Origin: an uncultured Syntrophaceae bacterium
GTDB lineage: Bacteria > Desulfobacterota > Syntrophia > Syntrophales > UBA5619
DNA: 64,000 nt
NCBI GenBank assembly: GCA_964637025.1
Contig: CAZWTL010000007.1
Coordinates: forward strand, 5,112-69,111
Reading direction: 5' to 3'
Positions 4,408 to 62,995 of the stretch are shown piece after piece (position 1 is the first letter of the stretch; each line of letters starts with the position of its first letter). The notes below the pieces were generated by a model that worked only from the letters and a program-made list of their open reading frames with translations, had not been told where the DNA came from and did not search any database. The translations under genes were made by a program, and so were the position numbers.

Positions 4408-5904
4408 GTGCAATGCATGGAAATTTTCATGCTGACGGCGGTAGGAATAACCCTGTCCGTCGCATTGATCATCAACAAGAAGAGGGAGCCGCTGCACATC
4501 TCTTTCGCCGCGCTCTGTCTGGCGGTCGCCTTTTACGAGGGGGGCGTCTTCTTCAACCGGATGTTCCATACCGGGGGCTGGCTTCTTGTCGAACAACTGG
4601 GTCTTCTCGCCATTCCCCCCCTGATGATCAAATTCAGCCGCGATTTCTGCGAGGAGCAGACCCTGATCCGGAAACGCGATCTCGGCACCGCGCTGGTGTG
4701 CAGCGCAGGATTCGCAGCGGTTCTTTTCACGGCGGCCTCGGAATGGAGACACCTCGGGTTCTTCATGCATCTCTATGTGAAAGGTGTTTTTCTCCTGTGC
4801 TACGTTTCGTTGGTGGTCTATGCGAAGAAAAGGGCTGCCGGAGCGGAAAAGAAGCGACTTGTCTATCTCATCATTGCGGCCACCGCCGCCATCGCGAGCT
4901 ACTCCATTCCACCCCTGTTCAACCTGGTCGTTGCCGGGATGATCTATTTCATCATGATCGTGATCACCCACACCCATCTGACGGAGCTCCACGATCTCAT
5001 GGCGCGCGCCTTGGTGACGCTGGTCGTGTCCCTCTTCACGACCGTCGTATTTTACCTGGTCATCGGCTTTTTCGGAAAGGGGGACACCCCCCCGTTCACA
5101 CTCGTGCTGATGGTCTCCTTCATCATTGTCATCGCCATCGGACCCTTCCAGGTCATCCTGAAGAGGCTCCTGACCACGCTTTATCCTGAGATCAAGGACG
5201 TCTTCACTTCGCCCTATGATCTGGATGAAAAACTGGAGCGGGAGAAGGCGCTTCTGCTGGAAAAGATGGCTCCCGTTCTCGCGCACGAGATCCGGAATCC
5301 CCTCGGTTCGATCAAGGGGGCGGCGCAGGTGCTCCTGTCGGCGACGCAGGACAAGGATCAGCGCAGGCTTCTGGACGTGATTACCGAGGAGGCGAACCGT
5401 CTGAACCGGGTCGTTATGCAATTTCTCGATTATGCCCGCCCCTATCCGTCCGATTTCCGCCCGCGATCCGTCAATGCGGTCATTGAAAAGGCATTGGCCA
5501 TCGTCGAGGCCGACAGCATTTCAAGCCGCGTACATGTCCAGTTGGAGTTCCACCCCCATCTGCCTCCGGTGCTGATGGATCAGGAGCAGATCCACCAGGT
5601 CATCCTGAACATGGCCCTCAACGCCATCGAGGCGATGCAGGACGGCGGCACGCTGACTTTCCGGACATCCCGGATCGAGAGCGACGCCGGCGATGCCGTG
5701 GGAATATCCATCCGGGATACGGGTTCGGGGATCCAGCGCGATGTGCTGAAACAGATCTTTACCCCCTTTTTCACGACCAAGGAACGGGGGGTGGGGCTCG
5801 GCCTGGCGGTGTGCCAGCGGATTATCCGGAACCACGGCGGACGTATCCGCGTGAAATCCATCCCCGGACGGGGGACGATCTTCTATATTCGTCTTCCGGT
5901 TTGA
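4408..5904 (+). CDS. sensor histidine kinase with polytopic membrane N-terminal domain
   Basis: 498 aa. About 240 aa of hydrophobic multi-TM region is followed by the H-box LAHEIRNPLGS and HATPase_c motifs (DTGSGI, GLGLAV). Confidence 0.85.
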   Translation: MQCMEIFMLTAVGITLSVALIINKKREPLHISFAALCLAVAFYEGGVFFNRMFHTGGWLLVEQLGLLAIPPLMIKFSRDFCEEQTLIRKRDLGTALVCSAGFAAVLFTAASEWRHLGFFMHLYVKGVFLLCYVSLVVYAKKRAAGAEKKRLVYLIIAATAAIASYSIPPLFNLVVAGMIYFIMIVITHTHLTELHDLMARALVTLVVSLFTTVVFYLVIGFFGKGDTPPFTLVLMVSFIIVIAIGPFQVILKRLLTTLYPEIKDVFTSPYDLDEKLEREKALLLEKMAPVLAHEIRNPLGSIKGAAQVLLSATQDKDQRRLLDVITEEANRLNRVVMQFLDYARPYPSDFRPRSVNAVIEKALAIVEADSISSRVHVQLEFHPHLPPVLMDQEQIHQVILNMALNAIEAMQDGGTLTFRTSRIESDAGDAVGISIRDTGSGIQRDVLKQIFTPFFTTKERGVGLGLAVCQRIIRNHGGRIRVKSIPGRGTIFYIRLPV

Positions 5905-58404: not shown

Positions 58405-59157
58405 TCAGGGGACGGCTTCTTCCAACCCTTCCAGAAAGGCCATCACATTGGCCCCAAGAACACGGTGGTTGTAGCCCCCTTCCAGCAGGCCGAAGCAGCC
58501 GCCTCCGTTTTTGCGTGCGGCCTCGCGGACCATCCTTCCCATCTCCCGGTAATCCCCGGTCGTCAGGAGTCCACCCCAGTCCTGAAGGTGGTGGTCGAAT
58601 CCGGCGGAAACTCCGATGATGTCGGCCTCATGAGCAAGAAGAAAGTTGCGGACCTCTCTCAGATAAGCGTTGCGGTCCGTCGAGGCCGGATTCAGGATTT
58701 TGGCGTATTGAAGTCCTTCCAGGATATGGACCGTACCATCCCCGAAATGGAGATCGAAATCAAGGATCATGGCGGATCCGATTTTGTCCCGGTGCCGGAG
58801 CGCCTCCATCGCGATGGCCATGTTGTTGAAGTAACAGAAGCCCCAGGAACTTGCCGCCGAGGCGTGGTGACCGGGAGGACGGACCAGACCGAAGCAGGGT
58901 TCGGTCAGTCCGATGGTGGCGGCCTGGATGGATGCGCCTGCAGCAAGGGATGCAACGTCGAACAGCCCCTCTCTCCGGACCCGCTCCACATGCGATCGGG
59001 AGTGGACGGCGGCAATGTCCTCTTCCGTTGCCGGTATCGCCCGGACCCAGGTCACGCGATCGTGGATGGCCCGTTCTACGGCCTCCATCCGTCCGCTTTC
59101 AGCCGCCGGATCCGACGTATAGGGGATGCGGAAATCCTCGTGAAACACGACTTTCAT
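58405..59157 (-). CDS. histone deacetylase-family (Zn-dependent) deacetylase
   Basis: 250 aa. RPPGHHA and DFDLHFGDG metal/catalytic motifs. Confidence 0.85.
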   Translation of the reverse strand: MKVVFHEDFRIPYTSDPAAESGRMEAVERAIHDRVTWVRAIPATEEDIAAVHSRSHVERVRREGLFDVASLAAGASIQAATIGLTEPCFGLVRPPGHHASAASSWGFCYFNNMAIAMEALRHRDKIGSAMILDFDLHFGDGTVHILEGLQYAKILNPASTDRNAYLREVRNFLLAHEADIIGVSAGFDHHLQDWGGLLTTGDYREMGRMVREAARKNGGGCFGLLEGGYNHRVLGANVMAFLEGLEEAVP

Positions 59158-59615
59158 GACGCGACTTCTCCTCCCGCGACGGATGTGGGGTCAAGGAAGG
59201 CGATCTGTCGAAGCAGTTTCAGGGTGGTTTTCGTGACGTTGAGCGTCCGGATCTCATCGGGTGAAACCCATCGGGCTTCGAGGGCGTCGTCGGCCGCCTT
59301 CAATTCGCCGCCCGCGTATTCTGCTGCCATATCGACGATGACGTAGTGGAAGCGGAGGCGTCCTTCCAAGTCCCTGTCGAGGGAGTCGCAGACAAAAAGA
59401 GGTGCACCGGCGTGGATCACGATTCCCGTCTCTTCCCGGATCTCCCGTTCCGCCCCCTGCTGAAGGGTTTCCCCAAGCCTGAGTCCGCCTCCCGGAATCG
59501 ACCAGAGCCCTCGGGCCGGAGCCGCGCCCCTGCGGACGAGCAGGATACGGCCGTCCCGGAGGACAACGGCGCCAACGCCGACCCGTGGATGGTCCGGATA
59601 TTCCCGATTCGACAT
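59154..59615 (-). CDS. NUDIX hydrolase
   Basis: 153 aa. Nudix box GGGLRLGETLQQGAEREIREETG. 4-nt overlap with the HDAC-family gene start. Confidence 0.85.
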   Translation of the reverse strand: MSNREYPDHPRVGVGAVVLRDGRILLVRRGAAPARGLWSIPGGGLRLGETLQQGAEREIREETGIVIHAGAPLFVCDSLDRDLEGRLRFHYVIVDMAAEYAGGELKAADDALEARWVSPDEIRTLNVTKTTLKLLRQIAFLDPTSVAGGEVAS

Positions 59616-59630
59616 AACCGAAATCCTCCC

Positions 59631-60401
59631 TTAGGTTCCCCTGATTCGAAAAACGAAATGGTCGGTTGTTCGGGGCTGACGGGAGCCGTTAAATTCCCGT
59701 TGCTCAAAGGTCGCCCACCCGTGACGATCGACGAAAAGAACCGTCGAGGAACGGGTCCCGTAAACGGGGCTCTCGATGAATAACGGGGAGAGGATTCTTT
59801 CCCATTCGAGTCCCACACCCGTTTCGGGCAGGGAGGCGTCGGGCGGTCGGTTCCGATCGGCCAGAAGCTCGAAAAACGGCTCCGGCGACAGCTCCCTCTT
59901 TCGGTCCAGAAGATCTCGAAAGGCCGCTTTCCCGCGCTTAACCTTTGGCCACGGGGTGTCGAGAAGGCCGTTGCTCACCCCGTAGACGCCGGGCTCCAGA
60001 AGCCGTCGGTCCCCCCGATTCGAAAAATAGAACAAATCCGAGCTGTCGCCGACGAACAGGTTGAAACCGTTGAAACGATCGGCATCCTGCTGAATTCGGT
60101 CGAGATAATCCTGCGGCCCCTCCCGGCCCAGGAGATAGCCGCTGACCAGTGCCCCCCTCGAGGGGGCTTGAGGCTTCAGGGATGCCGGATCGCGGTAATT
60201 GGTGACGGCGGCGAACTTTCCGGATCGCGTGATTCCGAGCCAGGTTCCCCCTTCCCTGAGGTCCCGGCCGGCCAGCAGGTCCGGCGCCTCCTCCCAGAAA
60301 GAAGCGGGCGCCGATGATCTTTCGTAAAACTCGTCGCGGTTGGCCGCGAGCACGAGGGGAAAAAGTGCATGGCTTCTCCATGCGAAGAGAATCAGGCACA
60401 T
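59631..60401 (-). CDS. NRDE-family protein (DUF833/TANGO2-like)
   Basis: Real start at ATG 60401 (MCLILFAW...LAANRDEFYER). The upstream part of ORF 59631..60881 is an artefact. Confidence 0.8.
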   Translation of the reverse strand: MCLILFAWRSHALFPLVLAANRDEFYERSSAPASFWEEAPDLLAGRDLREGGTWLGITRSGKFAAVTNYRDPASLKPQAPSRGALVSGYLLGREGPQDYLDRIQQDADRFNGFNLFVGDSSDLFYFSNRGDRRLLEPGVYGVSNGLLDTPWPKVKRGKAAFRDLLDRKRELSPEPFFELLADRNRPPDASLPETGVGLEWERILSPLFIESPVYGTRSSTVLFVDRHGWATFEQREFNGSRQPRTTDHFVFRIRGT

Positions 60402-61186
60402 GGTCCGTTGAGCCTCTGTTTGACTTCGGCCAGGATCCGCCCCAGGACTTTGCCTGCGGAGGCGAGGATAACGACATCGGCAATCCTGTCCGCAGGCGTC
60501 GGGCTCAAATTGACGATGACGAGGCCGGCCCCGGCCTGTTTGGCATAAAGAGGCATGTAGGCCGCAGGGTAAACCACAAGCGATGAGCCGACAACCAAGA
60601 GCAGATCGCAGTTGCTCGCACGCCGGTTCGCCTCCAGAAGGGTCTCCTCCGGCAGGGCTTCGCCGAAGAAGATCACGTCCGGCTTCAGGATCCCGGAGCA
60701 GAAACCGCAGACGGGAGCCTCTTCGGGGTTCCCGTCGCCTCGAAGAAATCCCTCGACGCGGTAGCGTCTCCCGCATCCGAGACAGCGGATCCACTGCATG
60801 TTGCCGTGAAGTTCGAACACCTTTTCGGGGCTGTTCCCCGCCTTCTGGTGAAGGTTGTCGATATTCTGGGTGATCACGCAATTGAGCCGTCCCAGCCTTT
60901 CCAACTCTGCAATGGCTTCATGCGCCGCGTTGGGACAGGCGTTTAGAAAACGGTCGCCGGAGAGCAGGAAGCGCCATTGCTTGCGCCGGGTTTCCGGATT
61001 GTTCATGAATTTTTCGAGGGTAAAATCGTCCGGATCGAACTTTGTCCAGAAACCGCCGGGACTGCGGAAATCGGGGATACCGGATTCCGTGCTGACCCCC
61101 GCGCCCGTGAAGACGACGATGTCCTCCGCCTCCGTGATCATTTCCGCAACCCGGGCAATCCGGTTTTCCCCTTCCCGATCGATCAT
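60392..61186 (-). CDS. cobB: NAD-dependent protein deacylase (Sir2/CobB family)
   Basis: 264 aa. GAGVSTESGIPDFRSP, QNIDNLH, catalytic HGN, and the Zn ribbon CLGCG...CGFC. Overlaps the NRDE gene start by 10 nt. Confidence 0.88.
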   Translation of the reverse strand: MIDREGENRIARVAEMITEAEDIVVFTGAGVSTESGIPDFRSPGGFWTKFDPDDFTLEKFMNNPETRRKQWRFLLSGDRFLNACPNAAHEAIAELERLGRLNCVITQNIDNLHQKAGNSPEKVFELHGNMQWIRCLGCGRRYRVEGFLRGDGNPEEAPVCGFCSGILKPDVIFFGEALPEETLLEANRRASNCDLLLVVGSSLVVYPAAYMPLYAKQAGAGLVIVNLSPTPADRIADVVILASAGKVLGRILAEVKQRLNGPCA

Positions 61187-61396
61187 ATACGTGCCGCCGT
61201 CTCGGTGTGTCCATCAACGGGCCTGCTGACCGGTCGGATACGTTTCCCCGCACCTCCCTCCCGTGAACCGTTTTCACGGTACGACCGGAGCCCGAATGCG
61301 GGCACTATAGCCGAACTTCGGCGAAAAGACAAAATGAAAACCATTCCGCGCAAAGCCTGACTCTATGATGATCCTTTCATTCCGAATGGAAAAGTC

Positions 61397-61425
61397 TTGA
61401 AATCCATTATCTGCTGTTGTATTCT
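61397..61425 (+). promoter_or_regulatory. sigma-70-type promoter candidate for the cdaA fusion gene
   Basis: TTGAAA (61397-61402), a 17-nt spacer, then TATTCT (61420-61425). It lies about 105 nt upstream of the ATG at 61532. Confidence 0.45.
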
Positions 61426-61531
61426 TGCCACACCAGCGGCCATCTGTGAAGATGTCGTAAAATACGCTTTTTATTTCAAGCGTTTTCCGCGGCAGATTCC
61501 CCTTGGCCCAACGGGAGAAGGAGATGTTCCC

Positions 61532-62995
61532 ATGATCCAGAATGCCCTGACGATGCTCAACAACCTGAGGCTTCAGGACATTCTGGACATCGCCATCATC
61601 TCGGTCATGATCTCGGCGCTTCTGATCTGGTTCAAGGACAGGGCGTCCCGTTTTGTCTTTTTCGGCATTACGCTGCTAGGCGTCATCTACGTCCTTGCCC
61701 GTTTTTTCCAGCTCTACCTGACCGCCGTGGTCCTGCAGTCCTTCTTCGCCATTCTGCTCTTCGTGCTCGTCGTGATCTTTCAGGAGGATCTCCGGCGGTT
61801 CTTCGAGAGGCTGGCCCTTCTCGGGCGTTTCCGGAAACGGTTCTTCGATGTGGCAGCATTCACCGAAAGTGCGGAAATTCTGACCCAGACCGCGGCCGAT
61901 CTCGCCCGGAAGAAGATTGGTGCCCTGATCGTTCTCCAGGGACATGATCCCCTTGACCGACACCTTACGGGGGGAAGCCACCTTGACGGCATCCTGAGCC
62001 AGCCCCTATTGGAGAGCATCTTCGATCCCCATTCCATCGGGCACGATGGCGCTGTTCTCATCGACGGAAACCGGGTGATGCGCTTCGGGTGCCATCTTCC
62101 CCTTTCGGCAAATGCCGCCCAGCACGGAAGCATGGGGTTGCGTCATACGGCGGCCCTCGGCCTTTCCGAACGGTCGGACGCGATCTGTATCGTGGTCTCC
62201 GAGGAGCGCGGCAGCATTTCTCTCGCAAAGGGGGAGCGCCTCCAGGAAGTCGCAAACGCGTCGGCCCTTCGGATCGAATTGGAGGCTTTTTTCTCCCGGC
62301 GAGCGCCCGTTGGCAAAACAGGGCCTGTTGGCCGGTGGTTCAAGGAGAACCAGCGCGAGAAGGTAATCGCGGTCATGCTCGCCTGCATCCTCTGGTTTGC
62401 TTTCGGTTACCAGCGCGACACAGTCCGTAGGGATTTCACCGTGCCCATCGAATACAGGAATGCACCGGCGGAATGGATTCTGGAGGAACCCAAAGCCACG
62501 GAGGCAAAGATTATGCTCATGGGGCATGCCCAGGCCTTTCAGCTCCTCCACGCCGAGGATCTCAAGATCTCGTTAGACTTGGCTGAACTCCCCCCCGGCA
62601 AACAGGAGGTTACGCTCACGCCGGCCATGGTGAAGGCCCCTTCAAACATCGAAGTGACCGCCATCAGCCCCGAACGGATCACAATCGTCACATCCCGGTT
62701 GATTTCGATGACCGTCCCGATCGAGGTTCTGACTGAAAACAACCCGCCACAGGGGATCACAATCCAGCAGATTACCGCCACCCCTTCCGAGGCCAGAATC
62801 CTCATCCACCGAAAGCTCCGCGGCAAACGGATCCGGATACTGACGGAGCCGATCGATCTGTCGCAGCTGGATATTCAGAGGGCCTTCACGCCTTCCCTCC
62901 GTTATCCGCCGGACATCCAATTTGCGGGGGGGAAGCCGCCAATCGTCAGGGTCGTGGTCAAGACGCGGCAGGTGGAAGCGACTTCCCGGAGCTGA
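61532..62995 (+). CDS. cdaA: diadenylate cyclase CdaA fused to YbbR (CdaR-like) repeats
   Basis: Trimmed to the ATG at 61532 (GAAGGAGA upstream). Three N-terminal TM segments, a DAC domain (GALIVL, HDGAVLI, GLRHTAALG, VSEERGSIS), a further TM segment, then two YbbR-like beta-rich repeats. Confidence 0.85.
   Translation: MIQNALTMLNNLRLQDILDIAIISVMISALLIWFKDRASRFVFFGITLLGVIYVLARFFQLYLTAVVLQSFFAILLFVLVVIFQEDLRRFFERLALLGRFRKRFFDVAAFTESAEILTQTAADLARKKIGALIVLQGHDPLDRHLTGGSHLDGILSQPLLESIFDPHSIGHDGAVLIDGNRVMRFGCHLPLSANAAQHGSMGLRHTAALGLSERSDAICIVVSEERGSISLAKGERLQEVANASALRIELEAFFSRRAPVGKTGPVGRWFKENQREKVIAVMLACILWFAFGYQRDTVRRDFTVPIEYRNAPAEWILEEPKATEAKIMLMGHAQAFQLLHAEDLKISLDLAELPPGKQEVTLTPAMVKAPSNIEVTAISPERITIVTSRLISMTVPIEVLTENNPPQGITIQQITATPSEARILIHRKLRGKRIRILTEPIDLSQLDIQRAFTPSLRYPPDIQFAGGKPPIVRVVVKTRQVEATSRS

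Follow-up and report, generated by a model that had tools for sequence, protein, structure and literature searches.

The described systems closest to the locus reported here are those of reversible lysine acylation, in which CobB/Sir2 acts with a GNAT writer; in Bacillus subtilis, acuABC (encoding the GNAT AcuA and the HDAC-type deacetylase AcuC) and the sirtuin SrtN bring NAD- and Zn-dependent lysine deacylases into one pathway. A sirtuin encoded with an enzyme acting on the ADP-ribose moiety is known from SirTM-macrodomain-GcvH-L-LplA2, in which SirTM is an ADP-ribosyltransferase and the macrodomain the eraser (PMC4518038). In Syntrophus aciditrophicus, a member of the order Syntrophales, lysine acylation from acyl-CoA intermediates is abundant, and an active sirtuin strips glutaryl, butyryl and succinyl groups while leaving acetyl groups in place (PMC8942843).

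A further family is relevant through human disease. TANGO2 deficiency causes a severe metabolic disorder, and the biochemical function of TANGO2 and its bacterial homologues is disputed, with acyl-CoA binding, heme transfer and N-terminal-nucleophile (Ntn) hydrolysis all proposed and none settled. TANGO2 binds acyl-CoA through its NRDE motif (PMC11867700) and has a very large hydrophobic cavity, with binding of C16/C18 acyl-CoA (PMC11867700, PMC13044924). Heme trafficking has been reported for bacterial homologues such as Shewanella HtpA (PMC10470608), a role that is disputed (PMC12782551, PMC13044924). In the TANGO2 literature searched, the proposal of a hydrolase activity is based on structure, and none of the papers names a native substrate; the Ntn hydrolases known so far all cleave amides (PMC13044924). 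Our search of the published literature found no link between Sir2 and TANGO2, nor any between TANGO2 or HtpA and sirtuins or ADP-ribose.

Here, we analyse a four-gene cluster in a 64,000-nt stretch of DNA (the window) that differs from these systems. In contrast to acuABC and CobB, both eraser classes share one operon with a Nudix hydrolase and an NRDE/TANGO2-family protein; the operon lacks AcuB, no acyl-CoA synthetase target gene is adjacent in the window, and the HDAC-type enzyme is a compact 250-aa form. Like SirTM, the sirtuin shares its operon with an enzyme expected to act on the ADP-ribose moiety, but it is of the deacylase type, its partner is a Nudix hydrolase, and the two Macro-domain proteins of the genome are encoded elsewhere. 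As in the reversible acylation systems, a GNAT gene lies in the same operon in two relatives (G042 and L075).

Results

The preliminary description of this DNA had reported four linked minus-strand genes, the first and last pairs overlapping by 10 and 4 nt and the middle pair 15 nt apart, which the coordinates bear out. The features, in the direction of transcription, are:

61304-61332, minus strand: candidate sigma-70-like promoter, TTGTCT-17-TATAGT, upstream of the sirtuin gene (consensus match only, 9/12)
60392-61186, minus strand: Sir2, 264 aa, Sir2/CobB-type NAD-dependent protein lysine deacylase with Zn ribbon (Pfam, NCBIfam, motifs)
60392-60401, minus strand: 10-nt Sir2/NRDE overlap, ATGTGCCTGA, with the NRDE Met-Cys codons within the final codons of the sirtuin gene (..P C A stop)
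59631-60401, minus strand: NRDE/TANGO2-family protein, 256 aa, N-terminus MCLILFAW, putative cysteine Ntn hydrolase (Pfam TANGO2)
59625-59630, minus strand: Shine-Dalgarno sequence GGGAGG before the Nudix gene, inside the 15-nt NRDE/Nudix gap (direct sequence reading)
59154-59615, minus strand: Nudix hydrolase, 153 aa (Pfam NUDIX, Nudix box)
59154-59157, minus strand: 4-nt ATGA overlap of Nudix stop and HDAC start, preceded by GGGAGGAG at 59168-59175
58405-59157, minus strand: HDAC-type protein, 250 aa, compact Zn-dependent amidohydrolase of the HDAC/arginase fold (Pfam Hist_deacetyl)

The promoter candidate lies in a 210-nt divergent region upstream of the sirtuin gene that is shared with cdaA. 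This leader folds no better than its shuffles (z = -0.97), and an Rfam search gave no credible riboswitch or structured leader. A consensus scan found no promoter-like sites inside the four genes, terminator-like matches in the cluster are at chance level, and its G+C is uniform and the same as that of the flanks. The genes share a strand and have short or overlapping junctions without an internal promoter or terminator, the sequence hallmarks of an operon, and we infer that they form one co-transcribed unit.

Judged by comparison of gene neighbourhoods, this arrangement is more than chance: its gene order and close spacing are found again across Syntrophales. Among 47 genomes of the order with an NRDE locus, adjacency holds for Sir2 in 42, for Nudix in 36 and for the short HDAC in at least 19, and 16 have the complete four-gene set. 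The Sir2-to-NRDE junction is ≤30 nt in 43 of 53 related loci; in 25 of these 53 the two genes overlap, most commonly by 10 nt as here. For NRDE-to-Nudix, the junction is ≤30 nt at 34 of 50 loci. The arrangement spans about 24 GTDB families of Syntrophales, so the adjacency is not unique to the window genome. The core cluster is kept despite differing flanks in about half of the loci with 4-6 kb of flanking sequence, and the Sir2-NRDE start/stop overlap persists with NRDE divergence to 46% identity, also where flanks have changed. In many genomes, the cluster is embedded in a wider stretch of conserved gene order (yidC-jag-mnmE / cluster / cdaA), so background synteny accounts for some of the conservation.

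The composition varies, and any partner may be missing in some of the 47 genomes. NRDE is dispensable for the cluster, given that Sir2, Nudix and HDAC are directly adjacent without it in one Syntrophales genome (G040) and Sir2 and Nudix in another (G028). The GNAT gene of the two relatives is inserted between Sir2 and NRDE and encodes an acyltransferase of the RimJ/RimL-like protein N-acyltransferase type; in G042, the genes of the resulting five-gene operon are 8 nt apart at the first junction, overlap by 4 nt at the second and are separated by 29 and 2 nt at the last two. In two relatives, a TrpF/PRAI-like gene lies between NRDE and Nudix.

A check of neighbourhood conservation across bacteria, suggested with the preliminary description, found the linkage within Syntrophales and, with one exception, not beyond it. 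Outside the order, neither Sir2 nor HDAC was found within 6 kb of NRDE at any of about 66 loci (Desulfobacterales, Acidobacteriota, Bacteroidota, Ignavibacteriota, Pseudomonadota, Bacillota and Nitrospirota), and only one of 62 other Desulfobacterota genomes (G126) has the Sir2-NRDE pair, alone and in a different genomic context. In a quick tree with a poorly resolved backbone, NRDE of the G126 genus nests in a Smithella-type clade (97% SH-aLRT); transfer is a likelier source of this pair than an independent second origin, and G126 probably acquired it in that way. Taken from these neighbourhoods and this tree, the Sir2-NRDE linkage is essentially of one evolutionary origin.

A general NRDE-Nudix association was rejected, because scanning 66 loci of the non-Syntrophales type for a Nudix box gave a single match. 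A NudF-like gene is near NRDE only at eight Cytophagales loci, where it is divergent with rnhB in between; in Cytophagales, NRDE is flanked by rnhB and an alpha/beta hydrolase. At 11 Desulfobacterales loci, a thiolase gene is divergent from NRDE. NRDE is present in 51 of 61 Syntrophales genomes versus 71 of 301 in the phylum sample, a 3.5-fold enrichment. In the phylum sample, all 71 NRDE-positive genomes carry a sirtuin versus 188 of the 230 NRDE-negative ones (Fisher p 4.6e-6 by genome and ~6e-4 by genus, not corrected for phylogeny).

The family assignments reported earlier hold for all four proteins, as does the side-by-side occurrence of two deacylase classes, and the active-site motifs are intact in each protein. 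The sirtuin matches Pfam PF02146 (SIR2) over model positions 1-180 of 180 (5e-51, 173.6 bits, cut-off 24) and NCBIfam NF001753 at 268.6 bits (cut-off 243). It has the NAD-binding GAGVS (28-32), catalytic H127, and CLGC (135-138) and CGFC (160-163), which complete the Zn ribbon (C135/C138/C160/C163). The nearest structure is Sir2-Af2 (1ma3, 3.5e-68), followed by Sir2Tm, a closeness by which it is classed as a canonical protein deacylase. The window genome encodes two sirtuins, as does S. aciditrophicus (SYN_00042 and SYN_01020), with YxxR in neither (PMC8942843); the two belong to the same order. That paper makes no mention of NRDE, Nudix or HDAC neighbours of SYN_00042 or SYN_01020, and we found no other literature citing the neighbouring locus tags.

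The NRDE protein matches Pfam PF05742 (TANGO2) over its full length (4e-72, 243.8 bits, cut-off 22.6), and human TANGO2 structure 8sv7 matches residues 1-237 at 8e-44. The family marks are present, namely the N-terminal Met-Cys (M1 C2) and the NRDE motif at 21-24; M1, C2, N21 R22 D23 E24, R28, N68, R82, N144 and K153 are invariant in 16 relatives. C2, R22, D23, N68, N144 and K153 correspond to C2, R26, D27, N75, N157 and K166 of human TANGO2, matching the set proposed to be catalytic or anion-binding there (PMC13044924). The likeness to human TANGO2 (PDB 8sv7, 9bwa) and Shewanella HtpA extends from full-length homology to Met-Cys, NRDE, Asn/Asn/Lys and the basic triad. With the anion-binding triad ~11 Å from Cys2 and the proposed Cys-Ntn catalytic set kept, the protein has the residues of a cysteine Ntn hydrolase, and we regard it as a putative one.

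The Nudix protein (Pfam PF00293, 4e-22, 79.1 bits) has a perfect Nudix box at residues 43-65, GGLRLGETLQQGAEREIREETGI (consensus GX5EX7REUXEEXGU). Its best NCBIfam matches are the Nudix domains of NadM-Nudix proteins (8e-16, below the full-length cut-offs). In a profile comparison with the PDB, the uncharacterised 4dyw (1e-20) is ahead of NadM-Nudix protein 2qjt (2.5e-18), and NudJ, NUDT1 and NUDT15 score within a few orders of magnitude of NadM-Nudix, with MutT-type enzymes also not far below. The nearest characterised relatives are the ADP-ribose pyrophosphatase domains of NadM-Nudix, and ADP-ribose is a candidate substrate. The Nudix enzymes Ysa1 and NUDT5 cleave O-acetyl-ADP-ribose. A CoA-pyrophosphatase motif was considered and set aside, the spacing being a misfit by eye to the pattern.

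The HDAC-type protein, for which the earlier assignment can be refined to a compact form of about 250 aa, matches Pfam PF00850 (Hist_deacetyl) in two stretches (5e-35, 121.7 bits, cut-off 27.9). It has the catalytic His-His pair (H97 H98), the Zn ligands D135, H137 and D188, and the catalytic Tyr (Y229); these and D133 are invariant in 33 sequences. At 250 aa it falls below the typical HDAC domain (about 300 positions or more; standard enzyme 300-370 aa), and this length is genuine, given that the 120 best homologues are all 246-267 aa. Some homologues are annotated as acetylpolyamine aminohydrolase. An AF2 model (pLDDT 85, pTM 0.88) has bacterial HDAH/Kdac1 and HDAC6 CD1 as top Foldseek matches, with TM 0.80-0.85 on the query and only 0.55-0.68 on single-domain targets; all targets among the matches listed have at least 305 aa. 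Fold, His-His, Asp-His-Asp and Tyr are shared with Pseudomonas aeruginosa HDAH (5g0x), Acinetobacter baumannii Kdac1 (8szt) and lysine deacylase 5zmp, but the operon enzyme is about 55-125 residues shorter, with the N-terminal segment and ~40 residues after the DxH motif missing or trimmed. It belongs to a subfamily of about 250 aa without a solved structure.

Discussion

We lean, by a modest measure, towards the reading that this is a translationally coupled, co-transcribed operon native to Syntrophales and devoted to the turnover of acyl-lysine adducts, with proteins rather than small molecules as the substrates. The reactive acyl-CoA intermediates on which these bacteria live acylate lysines non-enzymatically. 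The sirtuin would remove acyl groups with NAD+, giving nicotinamide and 2'/3'-O-acyl-ADP-ribose, and the compact HDAC would hydrolyse complementary N-acyl amides without NAD+. The Nudix enzyme would convert ADP-ribose or O-acyl-ADP-ribose to AMP and (acyl-)ribose-5-phosphate. In the NRDE protein, Met removal would expose Cys2, and the protein would act as a cysteine Ntn-type acyl hydrolase. Its target would belong to the same process, as an acyl by-product or a substrate; the likeliest is the O-acyl-ADP-ribose that the upstream sirtuin would make, and acyl-CoA and N-acyl amides are alternatives. The GNAT inserted in relatives and the heavy acylation known in such bacteria fit this reading, and it is supported by the packing, the conservation in Syntrophales, the enrichment of NRDE in that order, the NRDE-sirtuin co-occurrence, the TANGO2 homology and the Nudix relatives. 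It is weakened by the single origin, the background synteny, the dispensability of NRDE, the close Nudix scores to NudJ/NUDT1/MutT-type enzymes and the disputed report of heme trafficking for bacterial TANGO2 homologues. The two Macro-domain proteins, which could already deacylate O-acetyl-ADP-ribose, weaken it as well.

The same evidence bears on a second, possible but rather less probable explanation, in which gene order is simply inherited: Sir2, Nudix and HDAC may cooperate, and NRDE would be a housekeeping gene of unrelated function (for example buffering of acyl-CoA, heme handling or hydrolysis of lipid amides). It would have been inserted a single time between them, close to the origin in an ancestral genome of the order, and have been inherited with them ever since. 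A linkage of single origin limited to one order supports this explanation, as do the yidC-jag-mnmE / cdaA synteny, the loss of NRDE from an intact Sir2-Nudix-HDAC set, the quite different NRDE neighbours elsewhere (thiolase in Desulfobacterales; rnhB and an alpha/beta hydrolase in Cytophagales) and the heme trafficking reported for Shewanella HtpA (PMC10470608). However, it does not sit well with a Sir2-NRDE overlap kept down to 46% NRDE identity and across changed flanks, with the pair alone in a different context in G126, with the insertion of a thematically related GNAT gene or with the 3.5-fold enrichment of NRDE in Syntrophales relative to the phylum.

An unlikely alternative places the cluster in small-molecule salvage of NAD/ADP-ribose and N-acyl amines, with the HDAC as an acetylpolyamine/N-acyl-amino-acid amidohydrolase, NRDE as a soluble-amide amidase (in the extreme a nicotinamidase replacing PncA) and the Nudix enzyme recycling ADP-ribose. 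The short HDAC lacks about 50-120 residues present in solved protein deacetylases and has homologues annotated as acetylpolyamine aminohydrolase; the window genome, with its two sirtuins, yielded no isochorismatase/PncA family gene; the TrpF/PRAI-like gene of two relatives implies phosphoribosyl chemistry; and known Ntn hydrolases all cleave amides (PMC13044924). Yeast, worm and fly, which have a nicotinamidase, also keep TANGO2. This co-occurrence makes a nicotinamidase role for NRDE unlikely, as does the fact that TANGO2 binds acyl-CoA and has a large cavity of lipid type, features unsuited to nicotinamide (PMC11867700, PMC13044924). A sirtuin closest to the protein deacylases Sir2-Af2 and Sir2Tm and a GNAT of the protein N-acyltransferase type also argue against salvage. 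A module for anti-phage defence by NAD depletion, with Sir2 and Nudix as its basis, is highly improbable: both domains occur in defence systems, and the Nudix protein gives a generic match to PADLOC candidate PDC-S07, but PADLOC was negative overall, with a sub-threshold, partial Sir2 match. The sirtuin is a Zn-ribbon CobB-type deacylase, G+C is uniform with the flanks, the chromosomal position is stable across an order, and there are no mobile-element or effector partners.

Returning to acyl-lysine turnover, in syntrophic fatty-acid and benzoate degraders, where lysine acylation is very heavy, the operon is a candidate means of its repair or regulation. The preliminary description had placed NRDE in acyl-group or ADP-ribose metabolism by association; the linkage is indeed conserved in Syntrophales, but it comes from one order plus one probable transfer, and the association offers a lead on the function of NRDE but does not place it. 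The evidence for an NRDE role is real, from one clade and essentially one evolutionary origin, and it gives a hint, testable though unproven, that proteins of the TANGO2 type handle the acyl groups that protein deacylation sets free. Coupling of a TANGO2 orthologue to a sirtuin with Nudix, a second deacylase and sometimes a GNAT suggests O-acyl-ADP-ribose, acyl-CoA and N-acyl-lysine as candidate substrates, a short list that is assayable with purified proteins.

A bolder proposal, which we consider doubtful, is that NRDE/TANGO2 proteins act as cysteine Ntn hydrolases on acyl groups borne by ADP-containing carriers, the missing deacylase for bulky or long-chain O-acyl-ADP-ribose made by sirtuins and possibly for acyl-CoA too. 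The (pyro)phosphate would be bound by the basic triad ~11 Å from Cys2, the acyl chain would sit in the large hydrophobic cavity, and the Syntrophales operon would encode a complete line from sirtuin to NRDE to Nudix. If this were true, part of what goes wrong in human TANGO2 deficiency would be the clearance of sirtuin-derived acyl-ADP-ribose or of related acyl carriers.

Organization of the cluster

Four minus-strand genes form the cluster, and their positions in the preliminary description agree exactly with the open reading frames (ORFs) found in the window. Pfam agrees with the family proposed for each of them.

Genes of the cluster (window coordinates, strand, product, Pfam match)
60392-61186, minus: sirtuin (Sir2), 264 aa; SIR2, 5e-51
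59631-60401, minus: NRDE protein, 256 aa; TANGO2, 4e-72
59154-59615, minus: Nudix hydrolase, 153 aa; NUDIX, 4e-22
58405-59157, minus: HDAC-family protein, 250 aa; Hist_deacetyl, 5e-35

The three junctions that had been described, a 10-nt overlap, a 15-nt gap and a 4-nt overlap, are all confirmed from the window sequence. In the 10-nt overlap (ATGTGCCTGA) the final sirtuin codons contain the Met-Cys codons of NRDE, the gap between NRDE and Nudix contains GGGAGG, and the ATGA shared by Nudix and HDAC is preceded by GGGAGGAG. The only promoter-like site on the cluster strand lies upstream of the sirtuin gene, terminator-like matches do not exceed chance level, and the G+C content is uniform with that of the flanks. 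As read from the sequence, the start/stop overlap suggests stoichiometric co-production of sirtuin and NRDE, and possibly a product hand-off between them.

The source genome is a Syntrophales MAG of 3.07 Mb (98.6% complete), in which the cluster is bordered by a convergent mnmE gene at its 3' end and by a divergent cdaA-YbbR fusion gene at its 5' end. The diadenylate cyclase ORF (CdaA_N and DAC domains; 61397-62995, plus strand), divergent from the sirtuin gene, encodes 532 aa with a long C-terminal extension if it starts at TTG 61397, or fewer from a later codon; cdaA occupies the same position beside the cluster in several Syntrophales.

Conservation and its limits

The adjacency is not unique to the source genome. 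NRDE was detected in 51 of 61 relatives searched, and its locus was retrieved from 47 of the 51 NRDE-positive Syntrophales genomes. Next to NRDE, 42 of these 47 genomes have Sir2, 36 have Nudix and at least 19 have the short HDAC; the HDAC figure is a minimum, since many loci were cut off after 1.5 kb of flank or at a contig edge. Sir2-NRDE-Nudix occurs in 32 and the complete four-gene set in 16. Genomes with cluster loci represent approximately 24 GTDB families, with NRDE identity down to 46%. Spacings of 30 nt or less separate Sir2 from NRDE in 43 of 53 loci (25 of them overlapping, usually by 10 nt), NRDE from Nudix in 34 of 50, and Nudix from HDAC in 13 of 25.

Neighbourhood conservation across bacteria, raised in the preliminary description, holds within Syntrophales and, with one exception, was not seen at the loci sampled from other lineages. 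Among the best 80 NRDE loci, one genome per species, approximately 66 are from outside Syntrophales (Desulfobacterales, Acidobacteriota, Bacteroidota, Ignavibacteriota, Pseudomonadota, Bacillota, Nitrospirota and Rhodothermota), and none of these has a sirtuin or HDAC within 6 kb of NRDE. Evenly sampled Desulfobacterota (301 genomes) include 62 NRDE carriers outside Syntrophales, and a sirtuin lies beside the gene in only one of them (G126), across a gap of 179 nt and with Nudix and HDAC absent; congeners are without the adjacency. In the tree, NRDE of that genus nests within a Smithella-type Syntrophales clade (97% SH-aLRT), and the pair in G126 therefore points to transfer rather than independent assembly. 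NRDE is found in 84% of Syntrophales genomes versus 24% in the Desulfobacterota sample, where a sirtuin is present in 71/71 NRDE-positive versus 82% of NRDE-negative genomes, as plain genome counts that ignore kinship.

Some Syntrophales carry further genes within the cluster. A GNAT gene (Acetyltransf_3) sits between Sir2 and NRDE in two genomes, one of them complete (G042), whose five genes, according to gene calls, are spaced in order by 8, -4, 29 and 2 nt (the negative value being an overlap). Two others have a TrpF/PRAI-like gene separating NRDE from Nudix, in the same orientation as the operon and with a possible connection to ribose-5-phosphate products.

Genes inserted in relatives (locus coordinates)
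L075 5474-6010: GNAT
L147 6001-9308 (G042): five-gene operon, SIR2-GNAT-TANGO2-NUDIX-Hist_deacetyl (gene calls)
L032 2675-3349, minus, and L038 ~4800-5486, plus: TrpF/PRAI-like phosphoribosylanthranilate isomerase homologue (PF00697, 1e-21)

Protein features

The sirtuin has all expected signatures (GAGVS, His127 and two CxxC pairs), has Sir2-Af2 and Sir2Tm, both protein deacylases, as its nearest relatives, and was searched for a defence-system signature with none found. In the NRDE protein Cys2 and the NRDE motif are both present, and homology with human TANGO2 (8e-44) extends across the entire protein. It also keeps the residues that a crystal structure suggested as a Cys-Ntn catalytic set, as well as the basic triad (PMC13044924). 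In TANGO2, sulfate is bound at the basic triad ~11 Å from Cys2 (PMC13044924), and acyl-CoA binding depends on the NRDE motif (PMC11867700).

The Nudix box is perfect. The best named relatives of the Nudix protein are ADP-ribose pyrophosphatase domains of NadM-Nudix, with one uncharacterised protein ranking higher and other subgroups close behind; given these mixed rankings, specificity for ADP-ribose or O-acyl-ADP-ribose is plausible but unproven. The HDAC-family protein has the catalytic residues His97-His98, Asp135/His137/Asp188 and Tyr229, and belongs to a well-populated compact subfamily of 246-267 aa throughout, so its short length is genuine. Its AF2 model (pLDDT 85, pTM 0.88; low-confidence loops at 99-106 and 138-141, beside the active site) superposes on bacterial HDAH/Kdac1 and HDAC6 CD1 with TM 0.80-0.85 on the query. 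The protein is a shortened core whose active site is complete. No solved structure was found for the compact subfamily, the listed structural targets all being ≥305 aa.

Interpretation

The evidence fits best with an operon, specific to the order, that would turn over acyl-lysine adducts. The sirtuin and the HDAC, erasers that differ in mechanism, would remove the adducts, the Nudix enzyme would clear the ADP-ribose-type by-product, GNAT would serve as writer in some relatives, and NRDE would most likely hydrolyse an acyl compound that this turnover either consumes or leaves as a by-product. In Syntrophus aciditrophicus, of the same order, lysine acylation is plentiful and derives from its own acyl-CoA intermediates; like the source genome it carries two sirtuins, one of which strips glutaryl, butyryl and succinyl but not acetyl groups (PMC8942843). 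NRDE might deacylate bulky O-acyl-ADP-ribose; we infer this from its Cys-Ntn site, from the triad that would bind phosphate and from a large hydrophobic cavity. The idea is weakened by a pair of Macro-domain genes at other sites of the genome and by the taxonomically narrow linkage.

In the leading alternative, NRDE would be a passenger within inherited synteny. A larger conserved block surrounds the cluster in many Syntrophales, with yidC-jag-mnmE at one end and cdaA at the opposite end, so that part of the conservation is background synteny; the core cluster is kept without either flank in about half of the loci having 4-6 kb flanks. NRDE can also be absent where its partners are kept, as in G040 (Sir2-Nudix-HDAC directly adjacent), G028 (Sir2-Nudix) and G055 (Sir2, an inserted regulator, then Nudix-HDAC). 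These losses, together with linkage in a single clade, make the four-gene set a loosely modular unit of one evolutionary origin. A second rival, small-molecule salvage, draws on the short form of the HDAC, on the PRAI insertions and on a missing PncA-type nicotinamidase, given that no isochorismatase/PncA-family gene was found in the 98.6% complete genome; the sirtuin's nearest relatives act on proteins.

Every family in the cluster is already known. A literature search found no link of TANGO2/NRDE to sirtuins, Nudix or HDAC enzymes, and what is new is the gene combination and the place of a TANGO2 orthologue inside a variant of a putative bacterial lysine-deacylation operon.

Other insertions and NRDE neighbourhoods

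In one Syntrophaceae MAG an HD_4-like domain upstream reads through into Nudix (L057 6551-7633, plus strand), which may make a single HD-Nudix fusion protein. Between Sir2 and NRDE, this locus also encodes a 166-aa protein of no assigned family with a signal-peptide-like N-terminus. Another MAG has a 122-aa ORF at that position (L058 5527-5895, plus strand), which by eye we take to resemble a DUF559-type endonuclease and which is probably a selfish insertion interrupting the otherwise tight junction. The pair in G126 adjoins a 1399-aa ORF (L141 7949-12148, plus strand), by eye presumably BadF/BcrA/HgdC-type activator ATPase repeats fused to a 2-hydroxyacyl-CoA dehydratase-like part.

Desulfobacterales-type loci (L055, L069, L072, L079, L080, L092, L094, L099, L107, L115 and L129) have a thiolase (acetyl-CoA acetyltransferase) gene near NRDE, mostly immediately upstream and divergent, which is a separate acyl-CoA context and lineage-specific too. 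In Cytophagales (L090, L098, L106, L110, L116, L118, L126 and L128) the order is NudF-like Nudix (minus), rnhB (plus), NRDE (plus), alpha/beta hydrolase (plus), ABC ATPase and a conserved 182-aa ORF, with the Nudix gene divergent from NRDE and 0.7-3 kb away.
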